Positions 44,150-62,730 are shown, counted from the stretch's first letter. The stretch is DNA of 64,000 nucleotides from a virus (IMGVR_UViG_3300043425_000245); one strand, 5' to 3'. Notes: generated from the sequence alone by a model not told the origin. Made by a program: numbers and translations.

Positions 44150-45220
44150 ATGAGCTTGCTTGAAAAGATTAAAAAGAACTCCACTATCAAGGATACTTCT
44201 ATCCTTGCCAAATCTAAATTCTTCACTAAGAAGGATATGATCCCAACTTCAATCCCAGTAATCAACGTTGCGTTGTCTGGTCGATTCGACGGTGGCTTGA
44301 CCCCAGGACTTACAATGTGGGCTGGTCCATCTAAGCACTTTAAGACTGCTTTCAGCTTGTTAATGGCTAAAGCGTATCAGGACAAATATGATGATGCTGT
44401 TGTTCTTTTCTATGATTCTGAGTTTGGTACTCCTCAGTCCTACTTTGATTCTTTCGGTATTGATACTGAGCGAGTTATTCACACCCCTATCACCGACATC
44501 GAACAACTGAAGTTCGACTTGATGCAGCAAATGAATAACATCGAACGTGGTGAACACGTTATTGTTATCATCGACTCTATCGGTAACTTGGCTTCTAAGA
44601 AAGAAGTTGAAGATGCGTTAGACGGTAAGTCTGTTGCGGATATGTCCCGTGCCAAGCAGTTGAAGTCTTTGTTCCGTATGGTAACACCGCACTTGACTTT
44701 GAAAGACATTCCAATGGTAGTTGTTAACCACACCTACATGGAAATTGGTATGTTCCCGAAAGCTATCGTTGGTGGTGGTACTGGTTCATATTACTCTGCT
44801 GATAACATCTACATCTTAGGTCGTCAGCAAGAAAAAGAAGGTACTGAAGTCGTCGGCTACAACTTTATTATCAACGTTGAAAAATCTCGTCATGTTAAAG
44901 AAAAATCTAAAATCCCTGTGTCCGTATCTTTTGACGGTGGTATTAGCAAGTGGAGCGGTCTACTTGATCTTGCACTCGAATCAGGACATGTTATCAAGCC
45001 TAGCAATGGTTGGTATTCAAAGGTAAATGTTGAGACTGGTGAAGTCGAAGACAAGAAGTATCGAATCAAAGATACTGATACCAAAGAGTTCTGGATGCCA
45101 GTGTTACAAACAAAGTCATTCTATGACTTCGTTAAGGACAAGTATTCAATTGGTCAAATTGAAATGGTAAGTGATGAGTCTATCGACAAAGAACTTGCTG
45201 AATTGGACCACGAAGAATGA
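44150..45220 (+). CDS. uvsX: Recombinase UvsX (RecA-like)
   Basis: FFTKKDMIPTSIPVINVALSGRFDGGLTPGLTMWAGPSKHFKT matches T4 UvsX FFNEKDVVRTKIPMMNIALSGEITGGMQSGLLILAGPSKSFKS. Long colinear identity through ...VKEKSK...FDGGI. Confidence 0.95.
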   Translation: MSLLEKIKKNSTIKDTSILAKSKFFTKKDMIPTSIPVINVALSGRFDGGLTPGLTMWAGPSKHFKTAFSLLMAKAYQDKYDDAVVLFYDSEFGTPQSYFDSFGIDTERVIHTPITDIEQLKFDLMQQMNNIERGEHVIVIIDSIGNLASKKEVEDALDGKSVADMSRAKQLKSLFRMVTPHLTLKDIPMVVVNHTYMEIGMFPKAIVGGGTGSYYSADNIYILGRQQEKEGTEVVGYNFIINVEKSRHVKEKSKIPVSVSFDGGISKWSGLLDLALESGHVIKPSNGWYSKVNVETGEVEDKKYRIKDTDTKEFWMPVLQTKSFYDFVKDKYSIGQIEMVSDESIDKELAELDHEE

Positions 45221-45522
45221 TCAAAGCGTACGAACTCTTGGATGAAGACGTTGAAGGAAATCAGTTAATTCGCTTGACTTCCAACGAATATTCAGGTATA
45301 ATTTATACTTACGGTAGAGTTCGTTTGCTTGAAGAAGAAGACCAACTGCGTGTTCAGTTTGAATATGACATTCAAGAGAACCCAGTTGGCGTTCTTGATC
45401 CAAGCAAGTTCAGAAATCACATTGGTGATATTCTGATTGATCTACTCGAAGAAAACTTATTAAAGAATAACATAGTATACACTGGCGGAACTGATGAGAA
45501 TCGAACAACAAATTCTGAGTAA
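45217..45522 (+). CDS. Hypothetical protein (T4 gene 40 position) carrying an internal promoter
   Basis: ORF between uvsX and gp41. Contains the promoter at 45275-45302. Confidence 0.4.
   Translation: MIKAYELLDEDVEGNQLIRLTSNEYSGIIYTYGRVRLLEEEDQLRVQFEYDIQENPVGVLDPSKFRNHIGDILIDLLEENLLKNNIVYTGGTDENRTTNSE
45275..45302 (+). promoter_or_regulatory. Early sigma70-like promoter (AATTCGCTTGACT-N16-TATAAT) embedded in a coding region
   Basis: Same conserved upstream element (TCGCTTGACTT) as the promoters at 30103 and 26664. Positioned to drive gp41. Confidence 0.5.
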
Positions 45523-46899: not shown

Positions 46900-48273
46900 A
46901 TGAGTATTGATGCTGGAAGAAATGTGAAGGTAGTTGTATTAGAAGCCCCAGAGGTTGTGCCTCGCCCAGATTTAGTTGGTACATGGTTGGATGAAACTCA
47001 TTACCACACACTGGTTGAGTCTGATATGGATTTGTACTTGCCTGCAAAGTGCGCCACAGACTTATCTGATCCAGATTGCAACAAGCAATGTAGTGGTTGC
47101 GCAAAAGGTCTTGATGAACGTAACATCGTTTTCAAGTTCCGTAAGAACTACTTCAGTGATGAAATGACAAAGTCTGCTTACGAAGGTCTTCGTGACGCAG
47201 CTACTGAAACTCAGAACCGTGGTACTGCTGCTGGTCCACGTGGTGAGAAGCTACAAGGTCGCGACTGGGTTACAGCGTATCAATGGGATATTATTGAAGC
47301 CTTTAAGAAGGGTGCTGGTAACTTGTTGGGTGAAGACCCGATTGAAGCTATCCAAACTAAATATGCCGAAGGTCGTGACCAAGCGTCTAACCGTGCTCAA
47401 GTATGGCTCCGCGATTCAGTTGCAGATGCTGGGTTCCAATTTGATGACTGGGTTGAAACAACTCGCCGTAAACCTGCAGCTGAAGCGTCAGCTGATGCAG
47501 CTTGGGTTGAAGACAATCTAATCTCTAAGACTACTTACGCAAACCCAGTGAACTCTGGTATTGCTGGTTGGTACGATCGTTATCCACGTATCCCTTATGG
47601 TCGTGCAACTTCTTACACTGAGAAGCAATTCGATAAGTTCAAGAAGTCTTACCCATACCTTCAGCATCTGTCTAAAGCGTTCGCTGAATTGTTACCATGG
47701 CGTTATGGCAACCAGAAAGCCGCTGCGGATAAGATTGATCCACGCTTCTTGGTCCCAAATACTCCATTCAGTACAATTACTGTAAACCGTAACTTCAGAA
47801 CTGCAGCCCACTATGACCCCGCAAATATGGATGATGGTTTCGCTAATATCTGCGTGTTTAGTAACTCTGATAATTATAGAGGTGCTTACTTGGTATTCCC
47901 CGAGATTGGTTATGCTGTTAACATTCGTCCAGGTGATTTACTGTTCGTTAATAACATGGCTGGTCTGCATGGTAATACTGAATTGATTCTGGATGACCCT
48001 AATGCTGAACGTATCTCTATCATTGCATTCTTCCACGAAGGTATGTTGACTCTTGGTTCTATGGAGTATGAAAATGCTCGTCGTAAGTTCGTTGATCACT
48101 GCAAGAACGATGTTAACAACCCTCACTATCGCCCACGCTTTAACGGTGTATACGCTGGAATGTGGGAAAGCCAAGAGTGGTATGACTTCTGTAAGAAAGA
48201 AGTTGGCGAAGCAGAAACCTTGAAGATGCATCCAGAATCTAATGCTTCTTCACTAGATGAGTTCTTTGCCTAA
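46900..48273 (+). CDS. TET/JBP-family 2OG-Fe(II) dioxygenase (5-methylpyrimidine or thymine oxidase) with N-terminal Cys-cluster region
   Basis: AAHYDPANMDDGFANICVFSN gives H-x-D-x-x-N (TET2 AHRDLHNMQNGSTLVCTL). LHGNTELI matches THGSILIE. ERISIIAFFH matches TET2 NRISLVFYQH (2OG-binding Arg and terminal His). N-terminal CATDLSDPDCNKQCSGC cysteine cluster. Confidence 0.75.
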   Translation: MSIDAGRNVKVVVLEAPEVVPRPDLVGTWLDETHYHTLVESDMDLYLPAKCATDLSDPDCNKQCSGCAKGLDERNIVFKFRKNYFSDEMTKSAYEGLRDAATETQNRGTAAGPRGEKLQGRDWVTAYQWDIIEAFKKGAGNLLGEDPIEAIQTKYAEGRDQASNRAQVWLRDSVADAGFQFDDWVETTRRKPAAEASADAAWVEDNLISKTTYANPVNSGIAGWYDRYPRIPYGRATSYTEKQFDKFKKSYPYLQHLSKAFAELLPWRYGNQKAAADKIDPRFLVPNTPFSTITVNRNFRTAAHYDPANMDDGFANICVFSNSDNYRGAYLVFPEIGYAVNIRPGDLLFVNNMAGLHGNTELILDDPNAERISIIAFFHEGMLTLGSMEYENARRKFVDHCKNDVNNPHYRPRFNGVYAGMWESQEWYDFCKKEVGEAETLKMHPESNASSLDEFFA

Positions 48274-48980
48274 TGTGTGCCGTAATTGGAGCAGTTATTA
48301 AGAATCCTTCTCTGAAGGATTTTGAAGCCCTGAAGCGTGTGTTCGTCGAGTCTAAGATTCGTGGTATGCACGCAACAGGTATGTCATTCTTACCAAAGTG
48401 GACTGATGATATTGTTACAATTAAGGAAGCTATCCCAGCGGATCAGTTCGTTGAGAAGCATATGCATAACGACAACTTCAAAGAGTTCATTAACAAGGAT
48501 GGTAACTTATATCTGATCGGTCACTGTCGTTACTCGACATCTGATTTGGAATATAACCAACCTATGGCCAATGCAGACAAATCAATTGTCCACAATGGTG
48601 TTATCACTCAAGAGCTTCCAGAACACTGGAAAGAGTTGTATGGTTATGACTGCGCAACAAAGAATGATTCTGAGTTAGTCCTGCATTCAAACGATCCTCT
48701 TGATGAGTTCAACAATATGTCCATGGCAGTTTGTACTCTCACGGCTTCTCCTAAAGAGTTGACTGTTTATCGCAATGGTAAGCGTCCATTATATTTGACT
48801 ACTCTATCGAATGGTAGTATAATTACCTCTACAGCAGATATTGCCAAACGTGCTAATTTGTATTTTCCAAACATGGAAATTCCAATGGACACATATATCA
48901 CGTTTGACTCAGCCTTAACTATGAGGATGCAACTTGTTAAAACAGGAAACAAGGATTTACAGAATGTACAACAAAAGTGA
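48273..48980 (+). CDS. Class-II glutamine amidotransferase / Ntn-hydrolase-like protein (N-terminal Cys nucleophile)
   Basis: Starts MCAVIGAV (Cys2 nucleophile as in MCGIVG GATase-II). Immediately followed by an amidoligase gene, the conserved PF12224 neighbourhood. Confidence 0.6.
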   Translation: MCAVIGAVIKNPSLKDFEALKRVFVESKIRGMHATGMSFLPKWTDDIVTIKEAIPADQFVEKHMHNDNFKEFINKDGNLYLIGHCRYSTSDLEYNQPMANADKSIVHNGVITQELPEHWKELYGYDCATKNDSELVLHSNDPLDEFNNMSMAVCTLTASPKELTVYRNGKRPLYLTTLSNGSIITSTADIAKRANLYFPNMEIPMDTYITFDSALTMRMQLVKTGNKDLQNVQQK

Positions 48981-49836
48981 TTTTACATATGGTATGGAGA
49001 TAGAGTGGGGAGATGTTCCCCGCTCTTTTTCAATTCCGGAACAACTAGGTTCTTGGGAATACTCCGAGCGTGACATTATCAACCTTCGTGCACCATACGC
49101 AAACGTGTGCGCCGATCCGTTGGGTGTTGAACCGCCAATGGGTGGTGAGATTAACACCAAGCCAACTAGAACTTGGCAAGACCAAGTTGATCGTTATTTT
49201 GAACTGAAAGATTTATTCAATGAACAAGGTCACGACCCAACTGTTGGTGTTACTGCTCATACCCATATTCATTGCCGTGTCCCAGGTCTTCGTGATGATA
49301 TTGATGCACTGAAGCGTCTAACAAAATACATCAAAGAGAATCAAGCTGCAGCCATTGAACATGTATATGGCTTCTTTGAGCACAACCAGATGAAGGGTGC
49401 CAAAGGTTCTAAGATGTATCTGAAGTTTGATGGTGGTCGCCCAATGCCTGACTACATGAGCGATAACATTATCAACCTAGCAACTGACTTTGATTCTTTT
49501 ATCAAGATGCACGCCGCAGGTAAAGATGGTGTATCAATGGGTCGTCCATTCCGTTTCGCTATTAACATGTATGCGTTGAAGCATATTGACACTGTAGAGT
49601 TTCGATTGTTCCGTGGCACGTTAGATCGTACTGAACTAGAATCATGCTTCCGTTTTGTTGAAGACTTCCTTGATGCTGCATTGAATGATGGTCCAAGCGT
49701 AAACGATCTTATTTCTGAACGTGGTTATAAGTTCCCTCCGATGCAATGGGACTTGGCTCAGTTTATCGGTTGGGAAAAGACTAAGCACCCAGAAGAACGT
49801 GGCAAGAAAGTGAGAACATACGTTGAAGTTGAATAA
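48964..49836 (+). CDS. Amidoligase-family enzyme (glutamine-synthetase/GCS2-like)
   Basis: Conserved gene-pair context with the GATase-II-like protein. E/H-rich catalytic region ...TAHTHIHCRVPG...VEFRLFRGT. AAGGA RBS before ATG 48964. Alternative starts 48934 and 48994. Confidence 0.5.
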   Translation: MYNKSDFTYGMEIEWGDVPRSFSIPEQLGSWEYSERDIINLRAPYANVCADPLGVEPPMGGEINTKPTRTWQDQVDRYFELKDLFNEQGHDPTVGVTAHTHIHCRVPGLRDDIDALKRLTKYIKENQAAAIEHVYGFFEHNQMKGAKGSKMYLKFDGGRPMPDYMSDNIINLATDFDSFIKMHAAGKDGVSMGRPFRFAINMYALKHIDTVEFRLFRGTLDRTELESCFRFVEDFLDAALNDGPSVNDLISERGYKFPPMQWDLAQFIGWEKTKHPEERGKKVRTYVEVE

Positions 49837-50374
49837 GTGTACTCGTGACCAATTCATCAAAGCTATCTCTGATGATAAGGCTGACAAGTTTGCTAAGACT
49901 TTCGTGGCCAAAGCAGACATGCAGGAACAGTGGGATGATTGTATCGGTGCCTTCAACGAAGAAGGTGAACTGATGGCTGCTATCATTACCACTATCTCTA
50001 AGCGTAAACCTTTCGTTGCTAATCTACAGCTGCTTCACACCTTTGCTAAACACAGGGGTCAGGGAGCAGCTAAAGCGTTATGTGAAGCATCACTTCGTCA
50101 TGTTAAGAGTAAGCAAGCGTTGTACTTTCGTGTATCGTCAGAACCAGAATCAGTTGGCTTCTATGAGAAGATTGGTTTCAAGTTCTGGGGTAAACAAAAG
50201 TCTGGTTGTCAGTTGAGTATTTTCCGAATTGATGGCGATACCTTCTTCGAGGGAGACTACGACTATACAGACCAGATGATCAACGGAGCCATCCATAAAA
50301 AGGGAAAAGGTGGGTGTGTAGAGGTATTTGACCTCACCGAAGCCCAGAAACCCCTGACTCTAGAAGGGTTTTGA
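49823..50374 (+). CDS. GNAT-fold acetyltransferase
   Basis: HTFAKHRGQGAAKALCEASL (R-x-x-G-x-A motif A). ...FYEKIGF typical GNAT C-terminus. TTG start in the ORF track; the true start may be downstream. Confidence 0.5.
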   Translation: MKLNKCTRDQFIKAISDDKADKFAKTFVAKADMQEQWDDCIGAFNEEGELMAAIITTISKRKPFVANLQLLHTFAKHRGQGAAKALCEASLRHVKSKQALYFRVSSEPESVGFYEKIGFKFWGKQKSGCQLSIFRIDGDTFFEGDYDYTDQMINGAIHKKGKGGCVEVFDLTEAQKPLTLEGF

Positions 50375-50379
50375 GGGTA

Positions 50380-50408
50380 TTTACTTTTATTCAAGAATAT
50401 AGTATAAT
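50380..50408 (+). promoter_or_regulatory. Early sigma70-like promoter (TTTACT-N17-TATAAT)
   Basis: Same family. Precedes ATG 50436. Confidence 0.55.
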
Positions 50409-50435
50409 ATATCTATAACTTGAAAAGGATTTATT

Positions 50436-51722
50436 ATGATTCATACCACTAACTTCTATCTCTACGCTTGGTTGAAACCAGAACCATATACAGTAAATAT
50501 GGGTAAGAAGGTTTCTCAGAAAACCTCTTATGTTTCATCAGCGTCATCTCAAGAGTTTTGGAATGATTTTGGTAATGCGAAACTACAACAATATTGTATT
50601 TTTGAATCTGATGATGAAGCCGTGGTCAGTGCGGCTGAATGGTGGGGTTTAGATTATGGTATGAAAGTTTTGGGTAAAGGTAAGTTCTACAACAAATCTA
50701 ACAACGCTCACCGTGGCGATCAATCATTAGTAACAGAAGAAATCAAACAGAAGATCGTTGACTTCTATGATGGTAAACTGAAGCCAGACGTTAATGTTGA
50801 TACATTCTCTCTTGGTCGAAACATTATCGACAAAGTTGAGAACGGTTTTTACCCAATCGTACAATTTCCAGTATATAAGTTGGTTGAGATGCAACGCAAC
50901 CAAGCACGTGCAATTGAACAGAACGTTGTTACTGAAGACCAGATTGTTCGAGCATATAATGATGACCCGAAACAAGTATTGCGCGATATTACACCAGCGA
51001 CGTTAGTAAAGCGACCAGATGGTAGTCTTGAAATTGTTAACGGACATACCCGCATCGGCGCTGCTTCTAAGTGTCGTGGGTGGAACGAGATTCCTGTTTG
51101 TATTGTAGAAGAGTCTGAATTTGGTGATACAGAGAAAGATATTGCTACTAATATCTTGCTTGCTGGTAGTTATGCCAACCGTCGAAGCCCTGTCATCACT
51201 AAAGAAAATACTGATGAAGACCTTATGTTCCAGATGGAAAACTATTTGGTCATTCAGGAGATGGACGCATCCGTTGAAACTGCTCAACCGTATATCCGCG
51301 AGGTTCTTACTGCGGAATTTACAAAGAGCGCAGGTTCTAAGCGAGCAGCATCAGGTATCGTCACTAAGATTTTTAATAAGTACGAGAAACAGAAGAACGA
51401 AATGTCAATTGCTAAGAACATGATTGTTTATAGCGACGCTGAACTTCGTACATACTGTTATCAGAAATATGAGAAACACGGCATCGCCGCTGTTCACTCA
51501 ACTATGAGTAGCATGGCTCACTTTGACCCACTTGGTTTTATTTTCCACCACGCGAGTCACATGAATACTCTTCCAAAGAAACTCGCTATTGTTCTTCACT
51601 CCAGGACAAAAGATGAATATGTAAAAGGACAAGCAGCTGGTAAAGTTGCAGCGATGCAAAAGGTCATTGATGGTTATAAATTACCTATCACGATTGATGT
51701 CCTGCCAGCATTTGAAGAATAA
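50436..51722 (+). CDS. ParB/Sulfiredoxin-fold (ParB-like nuclease domain) protein
   Basis: DGSLEIVNGHTRIGAASKCRGWNEIPVCIV resembles the ParB-Srx core (DG.HR..A, IP). About 428 aa. Confidence 0.45.
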   Translation: MIHTTNFYLYAWLKPEPYTVNMGKKVSQKTSYVSSASSQEFWNDFGNAKLQQYCIFESDDEAVVSAAEWWGLDYGMKVLGKGKFYNKSNNAHRGDQSLVTEEIKQKIVDFYDGKLKPDVNVDTFSLGRNIIDKVENGFYPIVQFPVYKLVEMQRNQARAIEQNVVTEDQIVRAYNDDPKQVLRDITPATLVKRPDGSLEIVNGHTRIGAASKCRGWNEIPVCIVEESEFGDTEKDIATNILLAGSYANRRSPVITKENTDEDLMFQMENYLVIQEMDASVETAQPYIREVLTAEFTKSAGSKRAASGIVTKIFNKYEKQKNEMSIAKNMIVYSDAELRTYCYQKYEKHGIAAVHSTMSSMAHFDPLGFIFHHASHMNTLPKKLAIVLHSRTKDEYVKGQAAGKVAAMQKVIDGYKLPITIDVLPAFEE

Positions 51723-52741
51723 TGGATTACAGACTAAAAGAAAACAGAAGAGAAGCCTTCATCCGCTGGTACGCATGGTCAATGAAATATGATGACTGTG
51801 ACCCAGCGGTTTGGGCTACAAACTATCTTCATAAACGTTATGAACATAATGACGAAGAACGTATTTGGTTTGCATGGTTATATGGTAACACATATCAACT
51901 GCCAACTGCTTGGGTTCTTAAGAATGAATTCCCTGACTACGAACTTGCCACGGTAGATCGTATCACTCAATGGAATACAACCAACTACAAACGACTCCGT
52001 TACCAGACTGATACGAAATGGAACAAGGGTCATCTTCCAGCAATGTTTGAATCGTATCAAAATTTTATTGGAAAGAAGACTCAACGTGAAACACTCGAAT
52101 CGTACTACGTCGGTGATGCTAAAGAAAACTTTGATGCTCTGTGGAGCGTTCTTAAGTCAAGGCTTCATAAGTTTGGTCGTTATTCTACTTGGTTCTATAT
52201 GCAGCATCTTAAGCACACTGCTGGTATTAACATTGAGCCTAGTTCTCTTATGTTGGATGATTATGATGGTTCCCGTTCTCATCGTAATGGATTACTTTTT
52301 GCCGCTGGGCGTGATAACGATGTTGATCGAAAACTCACTGGAAGCGAGTATGGAGACCTTGAAGCATTTGGCGAGGGAATCAGGGTTGAAATGCTAGACA
52401 GGTTTCCTGAACTAGCAAATCAAATTGACTTCTTTACTATGGAAACCTGTCTGTGTTCTTTCAAGAAAATCTTTAGAGCAAAGCACGGTCGCTATCTTGG
52501 ATATTACCTTGACCGTCAAGCTGAAGAGATTATCAAAGCTGAAGGTGATGGATGGTATGGTATTGATTGGAATGTTATGTGGCAATCTCGAAATGAAACA
52601 ATCGACTTGCGACTAGACCACAAGAATGGCATCAATAAAGAAAAGTTTACTTTCTTCCTGAACTCAGGTAAAATAGATAACTTAGAATGGATGTTTGAAG
52701 ATGAAGAAAAACCCTTAATGGGATTGGAGATGTTTACATGA
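51722..52741 (+). CDS. Hypothetical protein in the modification cassette
   Basis: ATGG overlap with the upstream gene. Trp/Tyr-rich. No motif I can assign from sequence alone. Confidence 0.4.
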   Translation: MDYRLKENRREAFIRWYAWSMKYDDCDPAVWATNYLHKRYEHNDEERIWFAWLYGNTYQLPTAWVLKNEFPDYELATVDRITQWNTTNYKRLRYQTDTKWNKGHLPAMFESYQNFIGKKTQRETLESYYVGDAKENFDALWSVLKSRLHKFGRYSTWFYMQHLKHTAGINIEPSSLMLDDYDGSRSHRNGLLFAAGRDNDVDRKLTGSEYGDLEAFGEGIRVEMLDRFPELANQIDFFTMETCLCSFKKIFRAKHGRYLGYYLDRQAEEIIKAEGDGWYGIDWNVMWQSRNETIDLRLDHKNGINKEKFTFFLNSGKIDNLEWMFEDEEKPLMGLEMFT

Positions 52742-53175
52742 ACCCAGATGACGTATTAAATGATGTGATGCAAGGAAGTCTTACATTAAGCGACGGCAAT
52801 TATTCTGTTGTAACAAATAGCGGTCTTGCACCAATTGGTATTAGTAGTTGGTCGGCTCATAATGCTATGACTGCTGCTACACCTCTCCCAAAGATTACAC
52901 GCACAGTGGATGAGATTATGGATGAGCATAGCCTCAACCGTATCGCTGTTGATCATAAAGTAACTGCTCAAGAGCTATTGAAGCTACAAGAGGTTGCCCA
53001 TGATTATGCCTCTGAGATTAAAGAGAACATCGCCAAGAACTTAGCACGTGATATTGCCAAGAAGGTTATGTTCAAAAAGAAACACGATAAGGATGCTGAC
53101 GTTCATCACTTCATCGGTCGTGTTTGGGTATTCACTGATGAAGAATTGAAAGAGTTACTGAATAATGTTCATTGA
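52738..53175 (+). CDS. Hypothetical protein
   Basis: Coupled ORF. Confidence 0.35.
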   Translation: MNPDDVLNDVMQGSLTLSDGNYSVVTNSGLAPIGISSWSAHNAMTAATPLPKITRTVDEIMDEHSLNRIAVDHKVTAQELLKLQEVAHDYASEIKENIAKNLARDIAKKVMFKKKHDKDADVHHFIGRVWVFTDEELKELLNNVH

Positions 53176-53770
53176 TAAAATTAAAGCGAATGATGAAGTC
53201 ACCATTCAACTTATTAGAGCGGAGAAAAAAGTGAGAAAACTTATTGCTGTTGGTGGTAGCCCAGGAACTGGCAAGACCACGTTGTTCCGTAAGTATATGG
53301 AAAGTAAAGTATTCCAACCAGTTGAACCAGCCAAGCTAGTTTCAGCCATGTATAATACTGAGCGTGATCTATACATCCTTGGTAAGTATGAAGAAGGCGA
53401 AGTGTTCGCTGGAACCGACCGTCTTTCTATGGCAGTTCAGCCAGCCATGCAGGAGTGGATCGCTTCCCATAACTGTAACGTTCTATTTGAAGGTGACCGT
53501 ATCTTCAATCAGTCTTTCCTAGAGTTCGCCATGGGTCTCCCAGATACCGAGCTTCATATCGTATTCCTGAACGCACCTAAGACAGTTCTCGAACAGCGAT
53601 ATAAAGATCGTGGTTCTGATCAGTCCGAGCAATTCCTAAGAGGTCGCGAAACTAAATATAGTAACCTGTTATCAAATTTTGACTTGATGCCTTATATTAC
53701 TGAGTTTGCAAATACTAACTTAGAGGAACAAGCGAAAGTCTTAGCCTTCCTAGAAGGACAATTAGGGTAA
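53165..53770 (+). CDS. P-loop kinase / NTPase
   Basis: Walker A LIAVGGSPGTGKTTLF, Walker B-like LFEGDR. About 200 aa. Not convincingly T4 gp1-like. Confidence 0.5.
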   Translation: MFIDKIKANDEVTIQLIRAEKKVRKLIAVGGSPGTGKTTLFRKYMESKVFQPVEPAKLVSAMYNTERDLYILGKYEEGEVFAGTDRLSMAVQPAMQEWIASHNCNVLFEGDRIFNQSFLEFAMGLPDTELHIVFLNAPKTVLEQRYKDRGSDQSEQFLRGRETKYSNLLSNFDLMPYITEFANTNLEEQAKVLAFLEGQLG

Positions 53771-54504: not shown

Positions 54505-55830
54505 ATGGCTAAACTGGCTGTAAAAGATTTTAAAGGTAAGCACGGCGAAACACGTATCATTGCCCTGCTTGAAAAACTGATTGAAGGTGTAAAATCTCCG
54601 TTTACCACTGCGGACGGTAAACAACAACCATTCAACCGAATCTCTTATCCAGACCCACGTACTGGTAAACTAGTTTCTAAGAACGCACTTGACTTGGCAG
54701 ACTCTGCTGACATCGCCAACGTTATTCGAGCAGGTTCAGTTTCATTTAAACAAATCAACTTAACGTATGAACGAAACGGGCAAGTTTCTGCTCTAGTACC
54801 TCTGAGTGATATCATGAAGACCGAAGACTTCGGTGGTAAGAGCAACCGTGGTGATATGGCTGAGATTATCTTTAGCGCAGCTATTGCTTGCCGATTCTTA
54901 AATAAGAACCAAGCTGTTATTGATAGTGACGTATTGGATATGATCAAACGTCTTAACGATACTGACACAAGACAGGTTATTGGTCCACTAAAATCGCCAA
55001 ACAAAGAACCAAAGGTTGTTGATGATTTGTACTGGGAAGTAAACTCTGCGCTTATTAACATTAAAGCGTTGAAGAACCCTCGACATATCAAGAACTTGAA
55101 AAGTATTATTAACTCCAGCGTTAAGTACGCCAACTCAACTACTGTTGCTGCAAACGCAAAAGTTGTTTATGAAAACAGCTTATATAACAGGATAGAAGTA
55201 AAAGCAATTGGTGTAGTTGCACAGAATGACACCAAGGTTGACGTTTACGTTGAAATTGATAATAAGAAAGTTAATATCAACGTTTCGCTAAAAGCAGCTG
55301 GCGCAAAACAATTTGGCCAAGTTGGTGGTGGTGGTTTAGATAAACAAAAAGACCTTTGGGAAACTCTCTTAGATTTAAAAGTCTCGCCAGCTTTAGAAAA
55401 GAAATATTACATGGTTCTGAAATCAGACGGATTAATTGCAGCAAATACTGAGGTGTACAAAGGTATGGTTGCTGAGTTCAACCGCAAGATGACTTCCAAC
55501 CAAGAGGCAGTTTACAATAGCCTTGCTGATGGTCTAATGTATTTTGGAACAAGGAATGATCCAACAGTGGATATGGTATCATTAAGCAACAAAGAGGCTA
55601 TGATTTATAAGTTTGGTAACTTATCTCAAGCTCTAAGGCTAAAGAACCGAGAACTAAAAGCAGTTTTTGTTTCTAATAAAAGTAAACCAGAAGTGAGATT
55701 TCAAGACGTGAAAACAGGTTCTATCTTATTCACCGTTAGACTAAAGGGTGAAACAAAGAACAACTATGTTCGCCACTATATTGAAAAGGGTAAGATGATG
55801 ACAGAACTAGTTGGTTTGGTCGCAGCCTAA
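54505..55830 (+). CDS. Hypothetical protein
   Basis: 441-aa ORF. No recognisable motif. Confidence 0.4.
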   Translation: MAKLAVKDFKGKHGETRIIALLEKLIEGVKSPFTTADGKQQPFNRISYPDPRTGKLVSKNALDLADSADIANVIRAGSVSFKQINLTYERNGQVSALVPLSDIMKTEDFGGKSNRGDMAEIIFSAAIACRFLNKNQAVIDSDVLDMIKRLNDTDTRQVIGPLKSPNKEPKVVDDLYWEVNSALINIKALKNPRHIKNLKSIINSSVKYANSTTVAANAKVVYENSLYNRIEVKAIGVVAQNDTKVDVYVEIDNKKVNINVSLKAAGAKQFGQVGGGGLDKQKDLWETLLDLKVSPALEKKYYMVLKSDGLIAANTEVYKGMVAEFNRKMTSNQEAVYNSLADGLMYFGTRNDPTVDMVSLSNKEAMIYKFGNLSQALRLKNRELKAVFVSNKSKPEVRFQDVKTGSILFTVRLKGETKNNYVRHYIEKGKMMTELVGLVAA

Positions 55831-55866
55831 ATATAAAGATATATTGATGGATCAAAAGGAATTCTA

Positions 55867-57102
55867 ATGTTAAATTTTAAAAGTTTCTTAAAGGAATCGC
55901 TTCTCCAAGAAGAGTTGCTCCTAGAAGCTAATCATACTAAAGATGTTGAAAACGACGACAAGGGTAAAATGCACGAACTACTTCTAGCGAAGTATCTTCA
56001 CCCTGATTCAACTCTTCCAGAACATCACCGCTCAGAGTCTGAAAACGAAGACCACGCTGGTACTCCAACTCAAGTTCACGATCGTCTTAAGAAAAAGATG
56101 GGTGACGCTGCATACTCTCAGATCGACGAACACGCAAAACAAACTGCTAAATCTATTCACGCTCACCTGAAGTCAGCTGGACACGTTGGTGAAGGGCAAC
56201 ACATCGGGCGAGTATTCTGGACATCAAACGCTGATAAGCCAGGAAAGCCAGGAGACCACGAAAAGACTACTGGTGTTAAAGACGTAAACTCCAACGCTGA
56301 CGTTATTGTTCGTGTCCACGATAAAGACGGTAAGACTGTTGGTCACGTTGGTGTATCTGCCAAGTATGGTTCACATAAACCAAACTATCGCAATCCTGGT
56401 CTAGATTCTATGGAGAAGACTGCTGGTCTTCAAAAGGGTTCTTTAAAGAAGCTATCCGACAACCACCATGCGCATATGGAAGAACTTGGTTACAATGGTC
56501 CAGCGACTCAACGTCACATTCAATACAAAATTGATAAGATGGGTATTGATAAGGCTCGTGCTGAACACTCTAAGTTTGAAGGTTTGTTGGCAAAGGGTAA
56601 GACCCTAAGTTCAAAGAATAAAGTCACACACGAACATCTTGCAAAATACATTTCTGCGCATGACGCATTAAAGCCTACTGAACAAGCAGCGTTTGAACAG
56701 AAAGCTCAGACAAGAGCAGCGACTGCCGAGGTATCAGCGCTGCACGCTAAACGTGCCATGGCTAAACACTTCTCTGAAAGTATGGCTAAGAAGTCTGATG
56801 ATGAGTTACGTGATATTGTTCGTCAACACGTATCCGCACCAACTCATATCCCGCATATCGTTGCTCACTCCAAAGTAAAAGATAGTGGTGATGCTGAATC
56901 GCACGTTGTTCCATCACACAGTATTGCGGATGATCACTTAGCCAACTTTGATAAGCTACACGTTGTACACAATGGCGGTATCTCTACTGTGATCAAAGGT
57001 GTCCATAAGAAGACTGGTAAAGTAACAAACGTTGGTTCTTTCACCATGAAGGGTTCTTCTGGTCCACACAAAGGTGTCGCTGGCACATTCTCATTGAGCT
57101 AA
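55867..57102 (+). CDS. Candidate capsid-targeted internal protein A (His-rich)
   Basis: N-terminus MLNFKSFLKE fits the T4 capsid targeting sequence pattern (T4 IPIII MKTYQEFIAE) and ends with a gp21-type L-x-E cleavage site. About 9% His. A TATAAAGA/CTAAATA box lies at 55827-55839. Confidence 0.5.
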   Translation: MLNFKSFLKESLLQEELLLEANHTKDVENDDKGKMHELLLAKYLHPDSTLPEHHRSESENEDHAGTPTQVHDRLKKKMGDAAYSQIDEHAKQTAKSIHAHLKSAGHVGEGQHIGRVFWTSNADKPGKPGDHEKTTGVKDVNSNADVIVRVHDKDGKTVGHVGVSAKYGSHKPNYRNPGLDSMEKTAGLQKGSLKKLSDNHHAHMEELGYNGPATQRHIQYKIDKMGIDKARAEHSKFEGLLAKGKTLSSKNKVTHEHLAKYISAHDALKPTEQAAFEQKAQTRAATAEVSALHAKRAMAKHFSESMAKKSDDELRDIVRQHVSAPTHIPHIVAHSKVKDSGDAESHVVPSHSIADDHLANFDKLHVVHNGGISTVIKGVHKKTGKVTNVGSFTMKGSSGPHKGVAGTFSLS

Positions 57103-57103
57103 T

Positions 57104-58882
57104 ATGATCAATTTTCTAAATTTCTTATTAGAAGCTGAAGAGGAAGGTGCTAAACTAAAGCACATTCACCACGCTGAAGACCGTCCACTTCTACACGGAG
57201 AAGATGGCTTTGAACACGCTTATGGTGCTCTTCAAGCAGCGCACCATCACACTGTACAAGGGCTTCAGTCTCATAAGATGACAATGAAGTATGATGGTTC
57301 TCCATCAGTTGTGTTTGGTCACCACCCCGAGAACGGTAAGTTCTTTGTGGCATCTAAGTCAGCGTTCAATAAGAACCCAAAGATTAACTACACTCCAGAA
57401 GATGTAGATGCTAACCACGGACATGCTCCTGGTCTAGCCGATAAGCTAAAGTCTGCTCTTAAGCACTTCCCTAAAGTTTCTCCAAAGTCTGGTGTATATC
57501 AAGGCGACTTGATGTTTACTCACGATGACTTAAAGAAGAAAGGTGATAAGGTTTCGTTCACACCTAACACTATCACTTATACAGCCAAGGGTGATAAGGC
57601 TGAAGCTATTAAGAAGTCTAAGATTGGTGTAGTTGTTCATACCAAATACGAAGGTGATAAACTAAGCAGCATGTCTGCTCACCATAACGTTTCCGGAAGT
57701 GATTTCGGTCAACACCCAGACGTATTCCATCACACTGCTGATTATGATGCTTCTGGGGCTCACTATTCTAAGCAGTCTCAAGATTCGTTTAACAAACATA
57801 TGTCCGCTGCTCGTGCTATTCACGCTGAGCATAAGGGTAAGATGTACAAAGCTACATCTATGCACCATGGAGACGGTGGACATCTAGCCACATACATCAA
57901 CCAAACTGTGCGCGAAGGTACTACACCAGACGCTGAAGGTTTGAAGACTCATATCGCTGGTAAGTATGAGAAGATGGTTTCTAAGCTAAAGACTGAAAAA
58001 GCTCAGAACGCTAAACTGGATGAACTAAAAGGTCACTTGGATCATATCAAGAAGAACCAAGGTCACTACGATAACCTATTGAAGATGCACGGTCACCTTC
58101 AGTCTGCCAAGAACGAACTTGTTAAGTCTCTAGAATCTAACGAAGGTTCTTACGAACACGCTATCAATGGCGAGGCTTCTAAACCTGAAGGCTTCGTTTA
58201 TAACCATACACATAATGGTGTTACAGAACCTACTAAGCTGGTCAACCGTGCAGAGTTTGCCCGTCAAAACTTATTGAAGGCTCGTACTCCTTCAAAAGAA
58301 GCTGTTGAGAAGCATGGCGTTCTAGCCTTTGGTCGTATGAACCCGCCAACTGTTGGTCATGAACAAGTTATCAACAAAGTCAAAGAAGTAGCCAAAGCTC
58401 ACAACGGTGATCATAAGGTTGTTCTATCACATAGCCATGATGAAAAGAAAAACCCTTTACCTGCTGATGTTAAAGTAACACACGCTCGTAATGCTTTCCC
58501 AGGAACAAACATTGAAGCTGCTTCTAAAGAGAAGCCAACTATTCTTCACCATGCTGCTGACATGTACGCTAAAGGTACTCGTCACTTACACGTTGTTGCT
58601 GGTTCTGATCGTACAGAAGAATACGAAAAGTTACTGAATAAGTATAACGACGGTTCTGAACATAAACACGGCGCATACAAGTTCAAGTCAATCACAGTTC
58701 ACTCGTCTGGTGAACGTGACCCAGACGCTGAGGGTACTGCTGGAGTATCAGGTACTAAGATGCGCGAATTAGCAGCTGCTGGAAAACAAAAAGAGTTCCA
58801 CGCTGGTTTACCAACACACATGAAAGACTTACACAAGTCTGCTCTTTATAATGATTTAAGAAAACATATGGGGGCAAAATGA
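57104..58882 (+). CDS. Candidate internal protein B: KxDG (RNA/DNA-ligase-like) N-domain fused to HxGH nucleotidyltransferase domain
   Basis: N-terminus MINFLNFLLE (CTS-like). Motif-I-like MKYDGSPSVVFG. C-terminal region AFGRMNPPTVGHEQ (NadM/NMNAT-like GRFxPxHxGH variant). Confidence 0.5.
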   Translation: MINFLNFLLEAEEEGAKLKHIHHAEDRPLLHGEDGFEHAYGALQAAHHHTVQGLQSHKMTMKYDGSPSVVFGHHPENGKFFVASKSAFNKNPKINYTPEDVDANHGHAPGLADKLKSALKHFPKVSPKSGVYQGDLMFTHDDLKKKGDKVSFTPNTITYTAKGDKAEAIKKSKIGVVVHTKYEGDKLSSMSAHHNVSGSDFGQHPDVFHHTADYDASGAHYSKQSQDSFNKHMSAARAIHAEHKGKMYKATSMHHGDGGHLATYINQTVREGTTPDAEGLKTHIAGKYEKMVSKLKTEKAQNAKLDELKGHLDHIKKNQGHYDNLLKMHGHLQSAKNELVKSLESNEGSYEHAINGEASKPEGFVYNHTHNGVTEPTKLVNRAEFARQNLLKARTPSKEAVEKHGVLAFGRMNPPTVGHEQVINKVKEVAKAHNGDHKVVLSHSHDEKKNPLPADVKVTHARNAFPGTNIEAASKEKPTILHHAADMYAKGTRHLHVVAGSDRTEEYEKLLNKYNDGSEHKHGAYKFKSITVHSSGERDPDAEGTAGVSGTKMRELAAAGKQKEFHAGLPTHMKDLHKSALYNDLRKHMGAK

Positions 58883-59280
58883 TTTCGTTTAAAGACTACC
58901 TAGAAGAAAAGAAAAAAGATCCATGCTGGACTGGTTATGAAGCCATCGGTATGAAAGAAAAGAACGGTAAGAAAGTTCCAAACTGCGTTCCAGTTAAAGA
59001 AGAAAACGAACTGGATGAAGCAGCAACTGCAGACGGCAAAGGTCATAAGTCTGCAACTGGTGGTCTTACTCAAAAGGGTCGCGATGCTTACAATCGCGAA
59101 CACGGTAGCAACCTAAAGGCACCTGTAACTACTCCACCTTCTAAACTAAAGAAGGGCAGCAAAGCTGCTAACCGTCGCAAGTCTTTCTGTGCACGTATGT
59201 CTGGCGTAGATGGTCCAATGAAGAAACCAAATGGCGAACCTACTCGAAAGGCTCTTGCCTTAAGAAAGTGGAACTGCTGA
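58879..59280 (+). CDS. Candidate internal protein C (small, basic)
   Basis: N-terminus MISFKDYLEE (CTS-like). Lys/Arg-rich. Confidence 0.45.
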   Translation: MISFKDYLEEKKKDPCWTGYEAIGMKEKNGKKVPNCVPVKEENELDEAATADGKGHKSATGGLTQKGRDAYNREHGSNLKAPVTTPPSKLKKGSKAANRRKSFCARMSGVDGPMKKPNGEPTRKALALRKWNC

Positions 59281-59319
59281 TACGCTAAATAATACTGTTA
59301 CTAATTATTGATGGATTAA

Positions 59320-61800
59320 ATGAAGAACTATAAAGAACTCCTAAGCGAGCTACCATCCAAGTCCGTGGTTTTCACATGCGGAAGATTCAATCCCCCTAAC
59401 GTGGGTCATGAGCTTGAGATCAAGGTAGTCCGTAAATTAGCGAGTCAGCGCAAAGCTGATCACTTCATTTTTGTATCTTCGGTACAAGACGCTAAAAAGA
59501 ATCCATTAGAAATTAGTAAAAAGATGCAGTATTTGGGAAGTCTATTCCCAAATACAAAATTCGTACATAAAGAGATAGATACTATCGGCTCTGTCCTTAA
59601 AAAGTACAAGAGTGTTACTTTAGTGACCCCAACTGATAACGTTGAATACTATAAGAAAGCGTTGAAGAAAGTTGGTATCACTGATGTTGAGATTGTTAAG
59701 GCTGGAGATACTTGCCCTGATGAAGACGACAAGCTATTGAAGTTGGCATCAAAGGGTGAATTTGTATCGTTTAAAAACAGTCTACCAACAACAGTCAGAG
59801 AATTAGACGGTAAGCGTCTAATGAATGATATTCGTATTGGCTTGAACCTTGAGCCAATCAGAGAACAAATTAACTTGGTTAAGGACGACCTGCGTGAACA
59901 GTATTTCCGTGGTGAGATTTTTAACGAAGGTGATATCGTTGAAAGCGATAATACAGTATATAAAATTATCAAACGTGGCTCTAATCATTTGCTGTTACAG
60001 AATGAAGCTGGTTTAAAAGTGAGTAAATGGATTCAAGACGTACAACTAACCGAAAGAGAATTTATGTTAGACGAAAAACTATTACAAGAAGCTGACGCTG
60101 CTGCAGCCACTGGTTTGGCCACTGGTAACAAAGAAGCTAAGAAAGCACAAGCTGATACAGAGAAGATGAAACTTGCTCTTGATCAAGCCAAGGAAAAAGA
60201 AGACCTAGCCAAGCAACAAGAACGCGAGCGCCAGAATCTTAAGAACATCCCAGAAGAATGCGGTTGCAAAGATTCTCCAGTTGTTGATAAGTCTAAGAAG
60301 TATAACATCGCTAAGTCTATCATGAGTCTAAGTGACTTCCGTAAGTCTACTGGTCAAATGACTAAAGATGAGACTGAGATTGCTGATAAAGTAAAAGATG
60401 GTCTAGTTGGTAACTCTCACTTACATACTGACCACAGTATGCGTCACCGTAAAGTAAAGTATCACTTGGGTGAAGGTAACGGCTACGATGATAACCGTAC
60501 TGGATTTGCTAAGAAGCCTCGCGAAGACGATGAGTACCACAACGAACCAAAACCAAAGTTCAAAGCTAAGTCTCTGTTAGATCGTCCACACACTGTTCAC
60601 ATTGACGGCAAGCCATGGAAGAAGTTCGACAACGGTCACCAAGCCCAAGCTGCCGCTAAGACGCTACGTGCTAAAGGTAAGAAAGCTAATGCTATCGCTC
60701 ACTTCAGAGAAGAAGTTGTGAATGAAGTTAACAAACATTCAACTCTTGGTAGGATTCTTCGTGGTCATGAGTTGAAGAAAAAGGTAGATTCTTCTTTTGA
60801 AAAGATCGGTGACGCCCAAAAGAAAGGTGTTGATGGTAGCAAAGCATTTAGAGACCATGAGCGATACGCTAACCTAGAACGTCCAGGCACTTGGACAAAG
60901 GTTAAAGAAGAAACTGATGAGCAACAAGCTACTCGTACTGCTCAACTAAAGCGTTTCAAAGATCAAGCTAAAGAATCTAAGCTAACTGAAGCACAAGTTG
61001 ATGAAGCAGTAAAGACAAAGGTTAAAACTGTGAACGTTGATAAAGTTCACACAGCTGGTCAAGAACCTCACGAAGAAAAGTTTGAGACAGTTAAAGAAGA
61101 AGCTGTAACTGAGGGGTATTTTGTTCATAGAGAAAAAGATACAAAGTTACACTTTAATACAGTAGCTCAGTTAAGACAATCTAAAACACCTTCTCATTTA
61201 AAAGTTACAGATCATAAACACAACCATTTAGGTACTGTTGCTGACGTTTTGAGAAATCAAACTTTATATAAAACCGAAGAAACTGAATTTGATGACATCG
61301 ATGATAATGAATTAGCTTCTCTAGTTGAAGCTGATATGGATGCTTTAACTGAAGATGATTTCTTCGAAGCATATGATGATGAAGAACTAGCAATCATCGA
61401 CGATGAGACTGGCGAAGAAATCGAAGCCGTTGATTCAGTCACTGAAGAAGCTCTGATGGAAGTTCTATCTAGAGTTGAACGTATCCGTGCTAAAGCTCGC
61501 ATGCGTCGCAGTCAAACTAAGCGTGAGCGTAGAGAGAAGGTTGCTCTACGTCAACTATCAACACCGCAAGTAGCAAACAAGCGTGCTCGTCGTATGGCTG
61601 TTTCTGCTCTTAAGAAGCGTCTTCTAAGAGGACAAAATGCTTCTAAGATCTCCGTTGGTGAGAAAGAACGTGTTGAGCGTTTCATCCAACAACGTCGTAA
61701 AGTTGTAGACCGTCTAGCTGCACGTATGGTTTCTCGTGTTAAACAAGTAGAAAAAGCTCGTATGTCTCACAAGAAATATACTAAACCAGCAGGTATCTAA
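59320..61800 (+). CDS. Candidate internal protein D: HxGH nucleotidyltransferase domain plus long charged coiled-coil and basic tail
   Basis: N-terminus MKNYKELLSE (CTS-like). TCGRFNPPNVGHE nucleotidyltransferase motif paralogous to internal protein B. E/K-rich low-complexity centre. Arg-rich C-terminus. Confidence 0.5.
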   Translation: MKNYKELLSELPSKSVVFTCGRFNPPNVGHELEIKVVRKLASQRKADHFIFVSSVQDAKKNPLEISKKMQYLGSLFPNTKFVHKEIDTIGSVLKKYKSVTLVTPTDNVEYYKKALKKVGITDVEIVKAGDTCPDEDDKLLKLASKGEFVSFKNSLPTTVRELDGKRLMNDIRIGLNLEPIREQINLVKDDLREQYFRGEIFNEGDIVESDNTVYKIIKRGSNHLLLQNEAGLKVSKWIQDVQLTEREFMLDEKLLQEADAAAATGLATGNKEAKKAQADTEKMKLALDQAKEKEDLAKQQERERQNLKNIPEECGCKDSPVVDKSKKYNIAKSIMSLSDFRKSTGQMTKDETEIADKVKDGLVGNSHLHTDHSMRHRKVKYHLGEGNGYDDNRTGFAKKPREDDEYHNEPKPKFKAKSLLDRPHTVHIDGKPWKKFDNGHQAQAAAKTLRAKGKKANAIAHFREEVVNEVNKHSTLGRILRGHELKKKVDSSFEKIGDAQKKGVDGSKAFRDHERYANLERPGTWTKVKEETDEQQATRTAQLKRFKDQAKESKLTEAQVDEAVKTKVKTVNVDKVHTAGQEPHEEKFETVKEEAVTEGYFVHREKDTKLHFNTVAQLRQSKTPSHLKVTDHKHNHLGTVADVLRNQTLYKTEETEFDDIDDNELASLVEADMDALTEDDFFEAYDDEELAIIDDETGEEIEAVDSVTEEALMEVLSRVERIRAKARMRRSQTKRERREKVALRQLSTPQVANKRARRMAVSALKKRLLRGQNASKISVGEKERVERFIQQRRKVVDRLAARMVSRVKQVEKARMSHKKYTKPAGI

Positions 61801-61802: not shown

Positions 61803-62288
61803 ATGTCAAAAATTCATATCCTTAAAAACACAGAGACAGAAGCCGTTGTTAAGTTCTATACAATGGAGTCTGCTGGTGAAACTCTTGACCTAAGTCTAAG
61901 CACTTGGTTGACTACTCCTACGCAAGTGTATGTCGCTGGCGCAGGCGATTCTTCAGAATCTGACGGACACTTTGCTCAGTATACAGGTTCACATGTTTAC
62001 ATTACTGGTATCTGGTGGGGTCTTAAGAAAGACAAACAACTTGATATCACTCGTATTTTAAACGGTGGTACTGGTTTGGTTCATAGCCATTACTTCTTTA
62101 CTAACTGCGGTCAACACGAGTTTGATCACCACGGTTTCGCTGATCGTATCTATGCCGATAAAGACTTTAGATTAGTATTTGATGGTCCAGGGCACTGTAT
62201 TCTTAAACTTCGTAAAATGGGTTGGACTTCTAAAGTTGAAACTTCTCAGTTCTCTATTTACGATAACACAACTGCAGTAGGAAGCTAA
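61803..62288 (+). CDS. Hypothetical protein, paralog of 16585..17013
   Basis: See the feature at 16585. Shared N-terminal and C-terminal blocks. Confidence 0.55.
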   Translation: MSKIHILKNTETEAVVKFYTMESAGETLDLSLSTWLTTPTQVYVAGAGDSSESDGHFAQYTGSHVYITGIWWGLKKDKQLDITRILNGGTGLVHSHYFFTNCGQHEFDHHGFADRIYADKDFRLVFDGPGHCILKLRKMGWTSKVETSQFSIYDNTTAVGS

Positions 62289-62289: not shown

Positions 62290-62730
62290 ATGGAAGAACT
62301 AACCGCATCTCTACACATCGCTCTTGCTAATACGTTCGTTATGTATTTCAAGGCGCACTCTTATCACTGGAACGTTGAAGGTAGAGACTTCATTCAACAC
62401 CACGATTTCCTAAACGATCTGTACACAGAACTACATGATGCAGTTGACCCATCAGCTGAACGTATCCGTGTTATCAGTCAATATGCTCCGCATAGCCTTA
62501 AAGACCTTCTAGAGTCTTCAACTATTGAGGAAGACGCAGACGTACCTTCTTCTGCCGATGAGATGTTCCAAAACCTTTTAGATGCAAACTCTAAAGTGAT
62601 CGATAGCCTAAATAAAGTATTCGAGTTAGCAACAGCAGCTAATAAGCAAGGTATTGCCGATTTTGCAGCTTCTCGCTTAGATACTCACGATAAACATGGT
62701 TGGTTCTTGAAATCAATCTTAAAGGGTTAA
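62290..62730 (+). CDS. Dps-like ferritin-fold protein (DNA protection during starvation family)
   Basis: FVMYFKAHSYHWNVEGRDFIQHHDFLNDLYTELHDAVDPSAERIRVISQ matches Dps [45 protein letters not shown]. C-terminus DKHGWFLKSIL matches DKFLWFIESNI. Confidence 0.7.
   Translation: MEELTASLHIALANTFVMYFKAHSYHWNVEGRDFIQHHDFLNDLYTELHDAVDPSAERIRVISQYAPHSLKDLLESSTIEEDADVPSSADEMFQNLLDANSKVIDSLNKVFELATAANKQGIADFAASRLDTHDKHGWFLKSILKG

Follow-up and report, generated by a model that had tools for sequence, protein, structure and literature searches.

Four consecutive genes with probable T4-type capsid-targeting leaders: a candidate block of internal head proteins in a marine T4-like myovirus

Why should the products of four consecutive genes begin with variations on one ten-residue sequence? 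The question is raised by positions 55,867 to 61,800 of IMGVR_UViG_3300043425_000245, a 64,000-nucleotide stretch of viral DNA (here called the window, always meaning the whole stretch) that comes from an uncultured marine myovirus of T4-like type, whose major capsid protein (MCP) has approximately 63% identity with its counterparts in Methylophilales phage Melnitz, Pelagibacter phage HTVC008M and a number of cyanomyoviruses. A sequence-only reading of this DNA had proposed that the common N-terminus is a T4-type capsid-targeting leader with an L/I-x-E site for the gp21 protease, marking a block of internal proteins. The proposal is supported by the head-maturation machinery of the phage, by the conservation of the leader, its modularity and its position relative to the folded domains, and by the presence of orthologues in virions; the leaders probably do target the four proteins into the phage head. 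The open reading frames (ORFs), as translated, and their leaders are:

55867-57102, + strand: ORF1, 411 aa, leader MLNFKSFLKE
55867-55896, + strand: leader 1, predicted cut after E10, predicted mature N-terminus S11
57104-58882, + strand: ORF2, 592 aa, leader MINFLNFLLE
57104-57133, + strand: leader 2, predicted cut after E10, predicted mature N-terminus A11
58879-59280, + strand: ORF3, 133 aa, leader MISFKDYLEE
58879-58908, + strand: leader 3, residue following the predicted cut (P1') K
59320-61800, + strand: ORF4, 826 aa, leader MKNYKELLSE
59320-59349, + strand: leader 4, P1' L

Translation gives the coordinates, strands, lengths and N-termini exactly as they had been noted earlier. The genes are tightly packed, with ORF1 and ORF2 meeting at 57102/57104, a 4-nt overlap between ORF2 and ORF3 (58879-58882) and a gap of 39 nt between ORF3 and ORF4. 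A relaxed form of the pattern, ^M..[FYW]..[FYLIMW][LIVMT].[ED], was run against every ATG, GTG or TTG start followed by 40 codons or more, on either strand of the window (1289 + 468 = 1757 candidate starts) and matched ORF1-ORF4 only, which bears out the earlier statement that no other ORF in the window has the motif; widening position 4 to aliphatic residues added no real gene start. As a positive control, in the T4 segments that were scanned the relaxed pattern picks out IPII and IPIII, and the widened one gp24 and Alt as well, whose N-termini are known gp21 substrates, plus gp48. Counted over the 69 window proteins (20,562 residues), the core heptad has 18 occurrences, of which four begin at residue 4, where 0.06 would be expected (Poisson P ~5e-7, with adjacency not yet counted). 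The leader motif is real and far beyond chance. At the DNA level the four leaders share 16-22 of 30 nucleotides and use different codons (TTA/CTA, TTT/TAT, TTC/TAC/CTC); together with the differing synonymous codons, this degree of identity indicates that selection acts on the peptide. The product descriptions given earlier stand as to length, while two of the traits singled out in them are not distinctive: ORF2 is as rich in histidine as ORF1 (9.5% against 9.2%), and not just the 133-aa protein but all four mature proteins are basic, with isoelectric points (pI) of 9.0-9.9.

In the T4 records, IPII and IPIII both begin with MKTYQEFIAE, Alt with MELITELFDE and gp24 with MAKINELLRE. The leader of ORF4 has five residues identical to that of IPIII, namely M1, K2, Y4, E6 and E10. 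The first ten residues of T4 IPIII suffice for head incorporation, residues 4 and 7 carrying the targeting and residues 8 and 10 the processing (PMC9026906); with Asp at position 10 of this capsid targeting sequence, processing is blocked and targeting still allowed (T4 review, PMC9026906). The positions conserved in the window, F/Y at 4, F/Y/L at 7, L at 8 and E at 10, are the functional positions of IPIII. At the targeting positions 4 and 7, ORFs 1 to 4 have F/F, F/F, F/Y and Y/L, compared with Y/F in IPIII, and the leaders end in F-L-K-E10, F-L-L-E10, Y-L-E-E10 and L-L-S-E10, each of them the [L/I]-x-E of a predicted propeptide.

Such leaders call for a scaffold to dock on and a protease to remove them, and a complete T4-type head module lies inside the window:

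14217-15947: portal, head module
15966-16154, + strand: gp67-like small prohead core protein, 62 aa, with an acidic tail; by-eye resemblance only to T4/KVP40 gp67
17015-17665, + strand: gp21-type prohead core serine protease, the predicted leader-removing enzyme (Peptidase_S77 PF03420, E = 5.8e-39)
17710-18741, + strand: gp22-type scaffolding core protein, the predicted docking partner (T4_CASP PF25623, E = 5.8e-71)
18768-20093, + strand: MCP (Gp23, PF07068)
18915-18923, + strand: L50-F51-E52 in the MCP, the predicted maturation site, from alignment with T4 gp23

The window thus has a gp21-family protease, a gp22-type scaffold, in which 17 [LI]-x-E sites were counted, and an MCP with a predicted L-x-E maturation site. 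In the MCP alignment, L50-F51-E52/T53 of the window falls column for column on L63-T64-E65/A66 of T4 gp23, and the L and E are invariant in T4, the window, Melnitz (FLSE/A, the slash marking the cut) and S-SM1 (ILTE/T). The predicted Melnitz site, FLSE/A, is the identical tetrapeptide to the end of a leader of the same phage, MQGFKTFLSE/A.

Among relatives, the leader is near-invariant across hundreds of metagenomic homologues, on unrelated folds. Of 120 homologues of ORF1 (52-95% identity), 113 retain F4, 109 F7, 108 L8 and 112 E10. The DUF6267 family, that of ORF2, keeps F-x-x-[FY]-L-x-E with 0-2 additional N-terminal residues, and the cytidylyltransferase (CTase) family, that of ORF4, keeps MK[D/N]Y[K/R]QL[I/L][K/R]E, invariably 10 residues ahead of the LPSKT beta-1 strand; one CTase subgroup has MKKYRQLVES, in which the L-x-E is retained one position earlier (residues 7-9). 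The peptide pattern is retained in homologues of merely 30-60% identity. A DNA-level counterpart of the block was found in none of 50,697 phage records by megablast; among the IMG/VR contigs, L004 and L010 are near-identical (99%), and an NCBI-derived protein of 592 aa is 100% identical to ORF2 across the 402 N-terminal residues searched. Syntenic blocks with the leader are seen in Melnitz (four consecutive genes), in Syn9 (gp184 and gp186) and at the IMG/VR loci L004-L025.

Once the leader is stripped, the proteins form several unrelated clusters. At L014, DUF6267 and CTase are separate genes, each with its own leader (MLSFVTFLKEE and MKSFLELVEEKE), and the fused ORF2 of the window has a single one. 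The CTase homologues of non-T4-type jumbo phages either begin directly at beta-1, as in K64-1 (MNKCIITFGRINP), or lack the E. The Pfam DUF6267 model begins at ORF2 residue 19, outside the leader, and the AlphaFold confidence measure (predicted local distance difference test, pLDDT) is below 50 at ORF1 residues 1-20 and ORF2 residues 1-16, which places the leader outside the folded domains. Unrelated cargo, gene fission and fusion, absence from jumbo phages and a position outside the domains are what a transferable module would be expected to show.

The relatives also widen the range of cargo. In a scan of the whole Melnitz genome, the motif turned up not only on the four block genes but also on a single P-loop kinase gene (MKTFAELQEG) and on the 92-aa gene 97 (MDVFQFIGEV). 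In the block of a more distant relative, the 167-kb contig L025, leaders stand on a HAD-type phosphatase, on a CTase (MKTFRSVVLEA), on a protein of 195 aa (MKTFQQLRTEA) and on an ADP-ribosyltransferase (MKSFAELRE); the last matches PF03496 at 1.6e-9, the family that T4 Alt matches at 5.8e-36. Across relatives, the leader-tagged AAA_33/zeta-toxin-like P-loop kinase has a match of 1.4e-14, and the Pfam match of the leader-tagged HAD-type phosphatase (FDIDDTL) is weak, below the cut-off. The loci of these phosphatases and kinases are:

L013, 9241-9855: leader-tagged phosphatase/kinase locus
L025, 11451-12101: leader-tagged phosphatase/kinase locus
L034, 44345-45013: leader-tagged phosphatase/kinase locus (Melnitz gene 118)

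The presence of leader-tagged kinase and phosphatase beside the RNA-ligase-like DUF6267 in relatives suggests a set for healing and sealing RNA ends.

One further occurrence is internal. In Melnitz gene 18, a CTase (L003 7583-9535), residues ~328-371 read KKFKDMFGEE-DPCWDTHKQVGTKKKNGKEVPNCVP, a stretch that resembles the ORF3 leader and CW motif in frame, with 59% identity over 44 residues. The stretch may mark a site of internal cleavage or be what is left of a gene fusion.

Virion proteomes of cyanophage relatives carry the argument from genes to particles. The whole 174-kb genome of S-SM1 was assembled and scanned for the motif, which is found in two annotated genes only: SSM1_190 (CTase, T4-GC190, MKKFSAFLNE) and SSM1_192 (T4-GC1455, MLSFKELQEK). 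Purified S-SM1 virions yielded peptide counts of 25 for SSM1_190 and 7 for SSM1_192 (Table S8, Sullivan et al. 2010, PMC3037559), so that both are among the virion-detected proteins (41 of 234 coding sequences), with a chance expectation of ~0.03. The leaderless DUF6267 gene SSM1_189 (T4-GC71) is missing from the virion table, flanked though it is by the detected SSM1_188 and SSM1_190-192. In S-CREM2, the CTase gp154, which starts MKNFSSFLTE, was detected in virions (S-CREM2 study); its authors noted that CTases are frequent in cyanophage virions and left true packaging undecided.

Taken together, the four genes would form a block of capsid-internal cargo, probably expressed late. Each protein would carry a 10-residue N-terminal capsid-targeting sequence, M-x-x-[F/Y]-x-x-[F/Y/L]-[L/I]-x-E, whose hydrophobic positions 4 and 7 would dock it on the gp22/gp67 scaffolding core during prohead assembly; a gp21-type protease would then cut after E10 at [L/I]-x-E, and the basic mature proteins, freed inside the head, would stay with the DNA and probably exit with it at infection. 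To judge by these likenesses, the four proteins would belong to the known T4 internal-protein system and the mechanism would be that of T4. We infer packaging and cleavage in this phage, ejection, a role in anti-defence or host takeover, and enzyme action in the host.

Several points weigh against this reading. P1' is L in ORF4 and K in ORF3, where the five T4 sites have A (IPII, IPIII and gp23), S (gp24) or D (Alt), and in ORF4 and the CTase family E10 stands only 4-5 residues ahead of the first beta-strand; because of these two features, cleavage exactly at E10 is less certain than targeting, especially for ORF4, where the predicted site abuts the fold. The authors of the S-CREM2 study warn that late proteins, when abundant, may be carried along in virion purification, and CTase was not detected in the virion proteomes of S-PM2, Syn9 and S-SCSM2R. 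The virion-detected neighbours GC1453, GC1454, GC425 and GC426 of S-SM1 are without the motif, which is therefore not required for virion association. The scan for uniqueness covers 64 kb of the genome of this phage, and the late-promoter evidence, given below, is weak.

The leader could also bring the proteins to the prohead core for another end, as assembly, scaffold or DNA-condensing parts that are then degraded or retained rather than serving as effectors. The T4 core proteins gp67, gp68 and gp22 are likewise processed by gp21, the acidic-then-basic tail of ORF4 and the basic ORF3 have a composition like that of core or DNA-binding proteins, and MHFKQFISTM, the N-terminus encoded at the gp68 position, comes close to the leader core. 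We consider such a structural role unlikely all the same: three of the four proteins are modelled with well-folded enzyme domains in which catalytic motifs are conserved (KxDG and HxGH, with D..SxK a candidate one), an enzyme would be without obvious substrate within the capsid, orthologue peptides are still present in mature virions, and BLASTP of the ORF4 tail against gp67/gp68 is not significant. That the common N-terminus is an intrinsic element unrelated to the capsid, perhaps an amphipathic helix serving oligomerisation, attachment to membranes or regulation, would fit the CTase family, where a very strongly conserved leader runs directly up to the catalytic domain, and AlphaFold2 does model the leader as a short helix. 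It would not fit the finding of the leader on unrelated folds, its gain and loss along with gene fission and fusion, or its absence from the CTase homologues of non-T4-type phages; the leader moreover ends in the same L-x-E as the MCP maturation site, agrees with the T4 targeting sequence at every position that has been mapped to a function, and tracks virion detection in S-SM1, all of which makes this explanation very unlikely.

It is more improbable still that the similarity is a nucleotide-level signal, for translation initiation or as a recombination hot-spot, or the trace of a recent duplication of gene starts. The loci of T-even internal-protein genes with a common N-terminal signal are variable (Repoila et al. 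1994, as given in a citing paper), and the gene content at the block locus likewise differs among relatives; the limited nucleotide identity of the leaders, their different synonymous codons and the survival of the peptide pattern in homologues of low identity are what is not expected of such a signal. A role in recombination could be secondary, and would then be compatible with capsid targeting.

As to what capsid-targeting leaders would deliver here, ORF1 is, from its structural model, a putative nuclease with a restriction-endonuclease-like PD-(D/E)xK fold of the MspI/HinP1I type, and it has a conserved D..SxK, a candidate catalytic motif, in a basic, His-rich (9.2%) protein. Its family matches no Pfam, PHROG or NCBIfam model, tblastn against the 50,697 records gave no homologue in phage records, and ORF1, ORF2 and ORF4 gave nothing useful against PDB sequences, profile search included. 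MspI and HinP1I have no detectable sequence similarity to ORF1, which differs from them also in an additional helical middle region and a C-terminal beta domain, and for which a cognate methyltransferase was not identified. CCGG is found 3 times in the window against 41 expected, and GGCC 9 times against 58. Depletion of CCGG as self-protection against an MspI-like ORF1 was considered and rejected: S-SM1 has 0 CCGG for 140 expected, with depletion likewise in S-PM2 and Syn9, yet tblastn gave no ORF1 homologue in phage records. Being lineage-wide, the depletion is not specific evidence for the specificity of ORF1. In Melnitz it is CGCG that is scarce, with 1 against 64 expected, CCGG being more weakly depleted (17 against 61); this nearly CGCG-free genome has an M.HhaI-like cytosine methylase gene (L037 4010-5227, record annotation).

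The domains recognized in the other three proteins are:

57158-58279, + strand: ORF2 N-terminal domain, DUF6267, with a predicted covalent nucleotidyltransferase (RNA-ligase-like) fold
58313-58882, + strand: ORF2 C-terminal domain, NMNAT/NadD/cytidylyltransferase-like HxGH nucleotidyltransferase
58879-59280, + strand: ORF3, basic DUF6321 protein, pI 9.9 (PF19846, E = 6.9e-27)
59320-61800, + strand: ORF4, with an NMNAT/cytidylyltransferase-like domain at residues ~14-257 (PF01467, phrog_3041/395)

ORF2 is, as modelled, a putative enzyme in which an RNA-ligase-like domain is fused to an NMNAT-like one. In DUF6267 the KxDG motif is invariant (K62, D64, G65), as are E362, G363 and V365 of an EGFV motif in which F364 is nearly so; the domain has the fold and the motif I lysine (KxDG) of the ATP-dependent RNA/DNA ligase superfamily. 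It shares the nucleotidyltransferase fold, KxDG and EGFV with the Rnl2/Rnl5-type RNA ligases (T4 Rnl2, NgrRnl of Naegleria and trypanosome REL1), but differs from them in a helical insertion of ~120 residues that splits the domain, in the NMNAT-like fusion and in the lack of any sequence-level match. The C-terminal domain of ORF2 and the N-terminal domain of ORF4 both have a Rossmann-like fold with G-x-F-x-P-x-x-x-G-H. ORF4 is an orthologue of cyanophage T4-GC190 (BLASTP 7e-26 to SSM1_190 of S-SM1 and 2.5e-29 to Syn9 gp184) and has a long, charged tail, with an acidic stretch at 651-700 (net -23) followed by a basic C-terminus. The NCBIfam search gave no matches. These are first fold-level assignments for DUF6267 and for the ORF1 family.

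The charged C-terminal tail of the ORF4 family is of variable length; against 826 aa here, the protein measures 700 aa in L010 (12217-14319), a contig with a 99% identical ORF2 homologue, and between 586 and 740 aa in other relatives (L005-L012). Homology of the tail to gp68 or gp67 of T4, KVP40 and PHG25 was tried and rejected, the likeness being one of composition only.

T4 IPI, IPII and IPIII and the window proteins have in common a 10-residue leader in which position 4 is aromatic, position 7 hydrophobic, position 8 L/I and position 10 E, as well as basic mature forms, clustered variable genes and a gp21/gp22-type head machinery in the same genome. They differ in that the window cargo is of 13-93 kDa, three of the proteins having predicted enzyme folds, whereas T4 IPII has 100 aa and IPIII 193 aa; the window consensus favours F-x-x-F-L-x-E, and beyond the leader there is no sequence similarity. 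T4 internal proteins are inhibitors of GmrSD. T4 Alt is likewise comparable, being a large enzyme that is loaded by way of an N-terminal propeptide cleaved by gp21 and is injected with the DNA, but there is no ADP-ribosyltransferase among the four proteins of the window. The earlier description of the gene set and domain content as unlike the T4 internal proteins accordingly holds for the window and finds its exception in L025, with its leader-bearing protein of the Alt family (PF03496). The C-terminus of Alt is likewise processed (T4 review, PMC9026906).

T4-GC190 of the S-SM1 and S-CREM2 virions is homologous to ORF4 and to the C-terminal domain of ORF2, has the same leader, and lies at a syntenic position, between replication genes and primase/nrd genes; ORF4 differs from it in an additional charged tail of ~570 residues. 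The published reports searched describe CTase in cyanophage virions without a mechanism, and some consider it contamination; leader and cleavage site together would supply a mechanism for the virion-associated enzyme. The ejection proteins of phiKZ and SPN3US offer a further comparison, being multiple head-internal proteins with a gp21-related protease and a motif ending in E, but those phages are not T4-type and their propeptides are mostly ~100 residues or longer, versus 10 here. Searches of the literature, incomplete in coverage, for such a targeting sequence in cyanophages or in T4-like phages from the sea more generally led only to papers on T4 and on giant phages; as far as these searches show, the extension to marine T4-like phages, the explanation of virion CTase and the enzymatic cargo are new.

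The expression signals near the block and the genes around it are as follows:

55827-55833, + strand: CTAAATA, T4-type late-promoter-like, 40 nt upstream of ORF1; suggestive only
59285-59291, + strand: CTAAATA, 35 nt upstream of ORF4; suggestive only
46900-48273: Tet/JBP 2-oxoglutarate-Fe dioxygenase (PF12851, 3e-23)
48273-48980: glutamine amidotransferase
49823-50374: GNAT acetyltransferase
51722-52741: amino-acid:DNA transferase (PF18724, 2e-21)
53165-53770: P-loop nucleotide kinase 3
62290-62730: Dps/ferritin-like gene without leader, downstream of the block (PF00210, 6e-23)

CTAAATA is a short motif and is also found upstream of the MCP gene (18734) and of the gene at 54505; the T4 late promoter TATAAATA occurs 4 times in the window against 2.8 expected, never at the block, and since it is not itself enriched the CTAAATA sites are no more than suggestive. 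The genes at 46900-53770, directly upstream of the block, look like a DNA hypermodification cluster, and the phage DNA is probably hypermodified. The gene at 54505-55830 has no BLASTP similarity to Syn9 gp182 or S-SM1 GC1453, which lie at the same position. The neighbourhood may include the Dps/ferritin-like gene as a conserved member; in L025 an ORF just after the CTase gene (13983-14411) has, by eye, a similar N-terminus.

Two other N-termini in the window recall the leader. The ORF at the position of T4 gp68 (16156-16581, between the gp67-like and protease genes) has in MHFKQFISTM the leader core F-K-x-F-I, shifted one residue earlier and without the glutamate; its similarity to gp68 is not significant. 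A 101-aa ORF at 45217-45522, without Pfam match and probably unrelated, starts MIKAYELLDE, the leader pattern shifted by one residue, so that a less strict scan would list it as a candidate; it sits between a 359-aa ORF (44141-45220), which we take to be uvsX, and a DnaB-like (gp41-like) helicase gene. The ORFs at 61803-62288 (161 aa, directly after ORF4) and 16585-17013 (142 aa, just before the protease) have near-identical C-terminal ends, GW[ST][ST]KVET..[YF]S[VI]YD[DN]TTAVGS, and look like paralogues; neither has a Pfam, PHROG or NCBIfam match.

A more far-reaching possibility, which we regard as rather doubtful, is that the block is a pre-packaged enzymatic first-strike kit (nuclease, RNA repair and NMNAT-like) acting before phage gene expression. 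If so, a capsid-borne nuclease would cut unmodified host DNA while the DNA of the phage may be shielded by its hypermodification; the capsid would hold RNA "healing and sealing" enzymes, RNA-ligase-like here and leader-tagged kinase and phosphatase in relatives; NMNAT-like enzymes would repair cleaved tRNA or resynthesise NAD+; and anticodon-nuclease and NAD-depleting abortive-infection systems would be neutralised at entry.

Capsid-targeting leaders on these proteins would extend the T4 system to abundant marine T4-like phages, namely cyanophages, Melnitz and uncultured relatives, and would offer a mechanism for the repeated finding of CTase in cyanomyovirus virions. With M-x-x-[F/Y]-x-x-Φ-[L/I]-x-E as a simple N-terminal rule, candidate injected proteins could be listed for each genome. 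The cargo appears to be enzymatic, RNA-ligase-like, NMNAT-like and restriction-enzyme-like here, with kinase, phosphatase and Alt-like ADP-ribosyltransferase in relatives, and the delivery of repair or counter-defence enzymes by marine phages along with their DNA thereby becomes directly testable.

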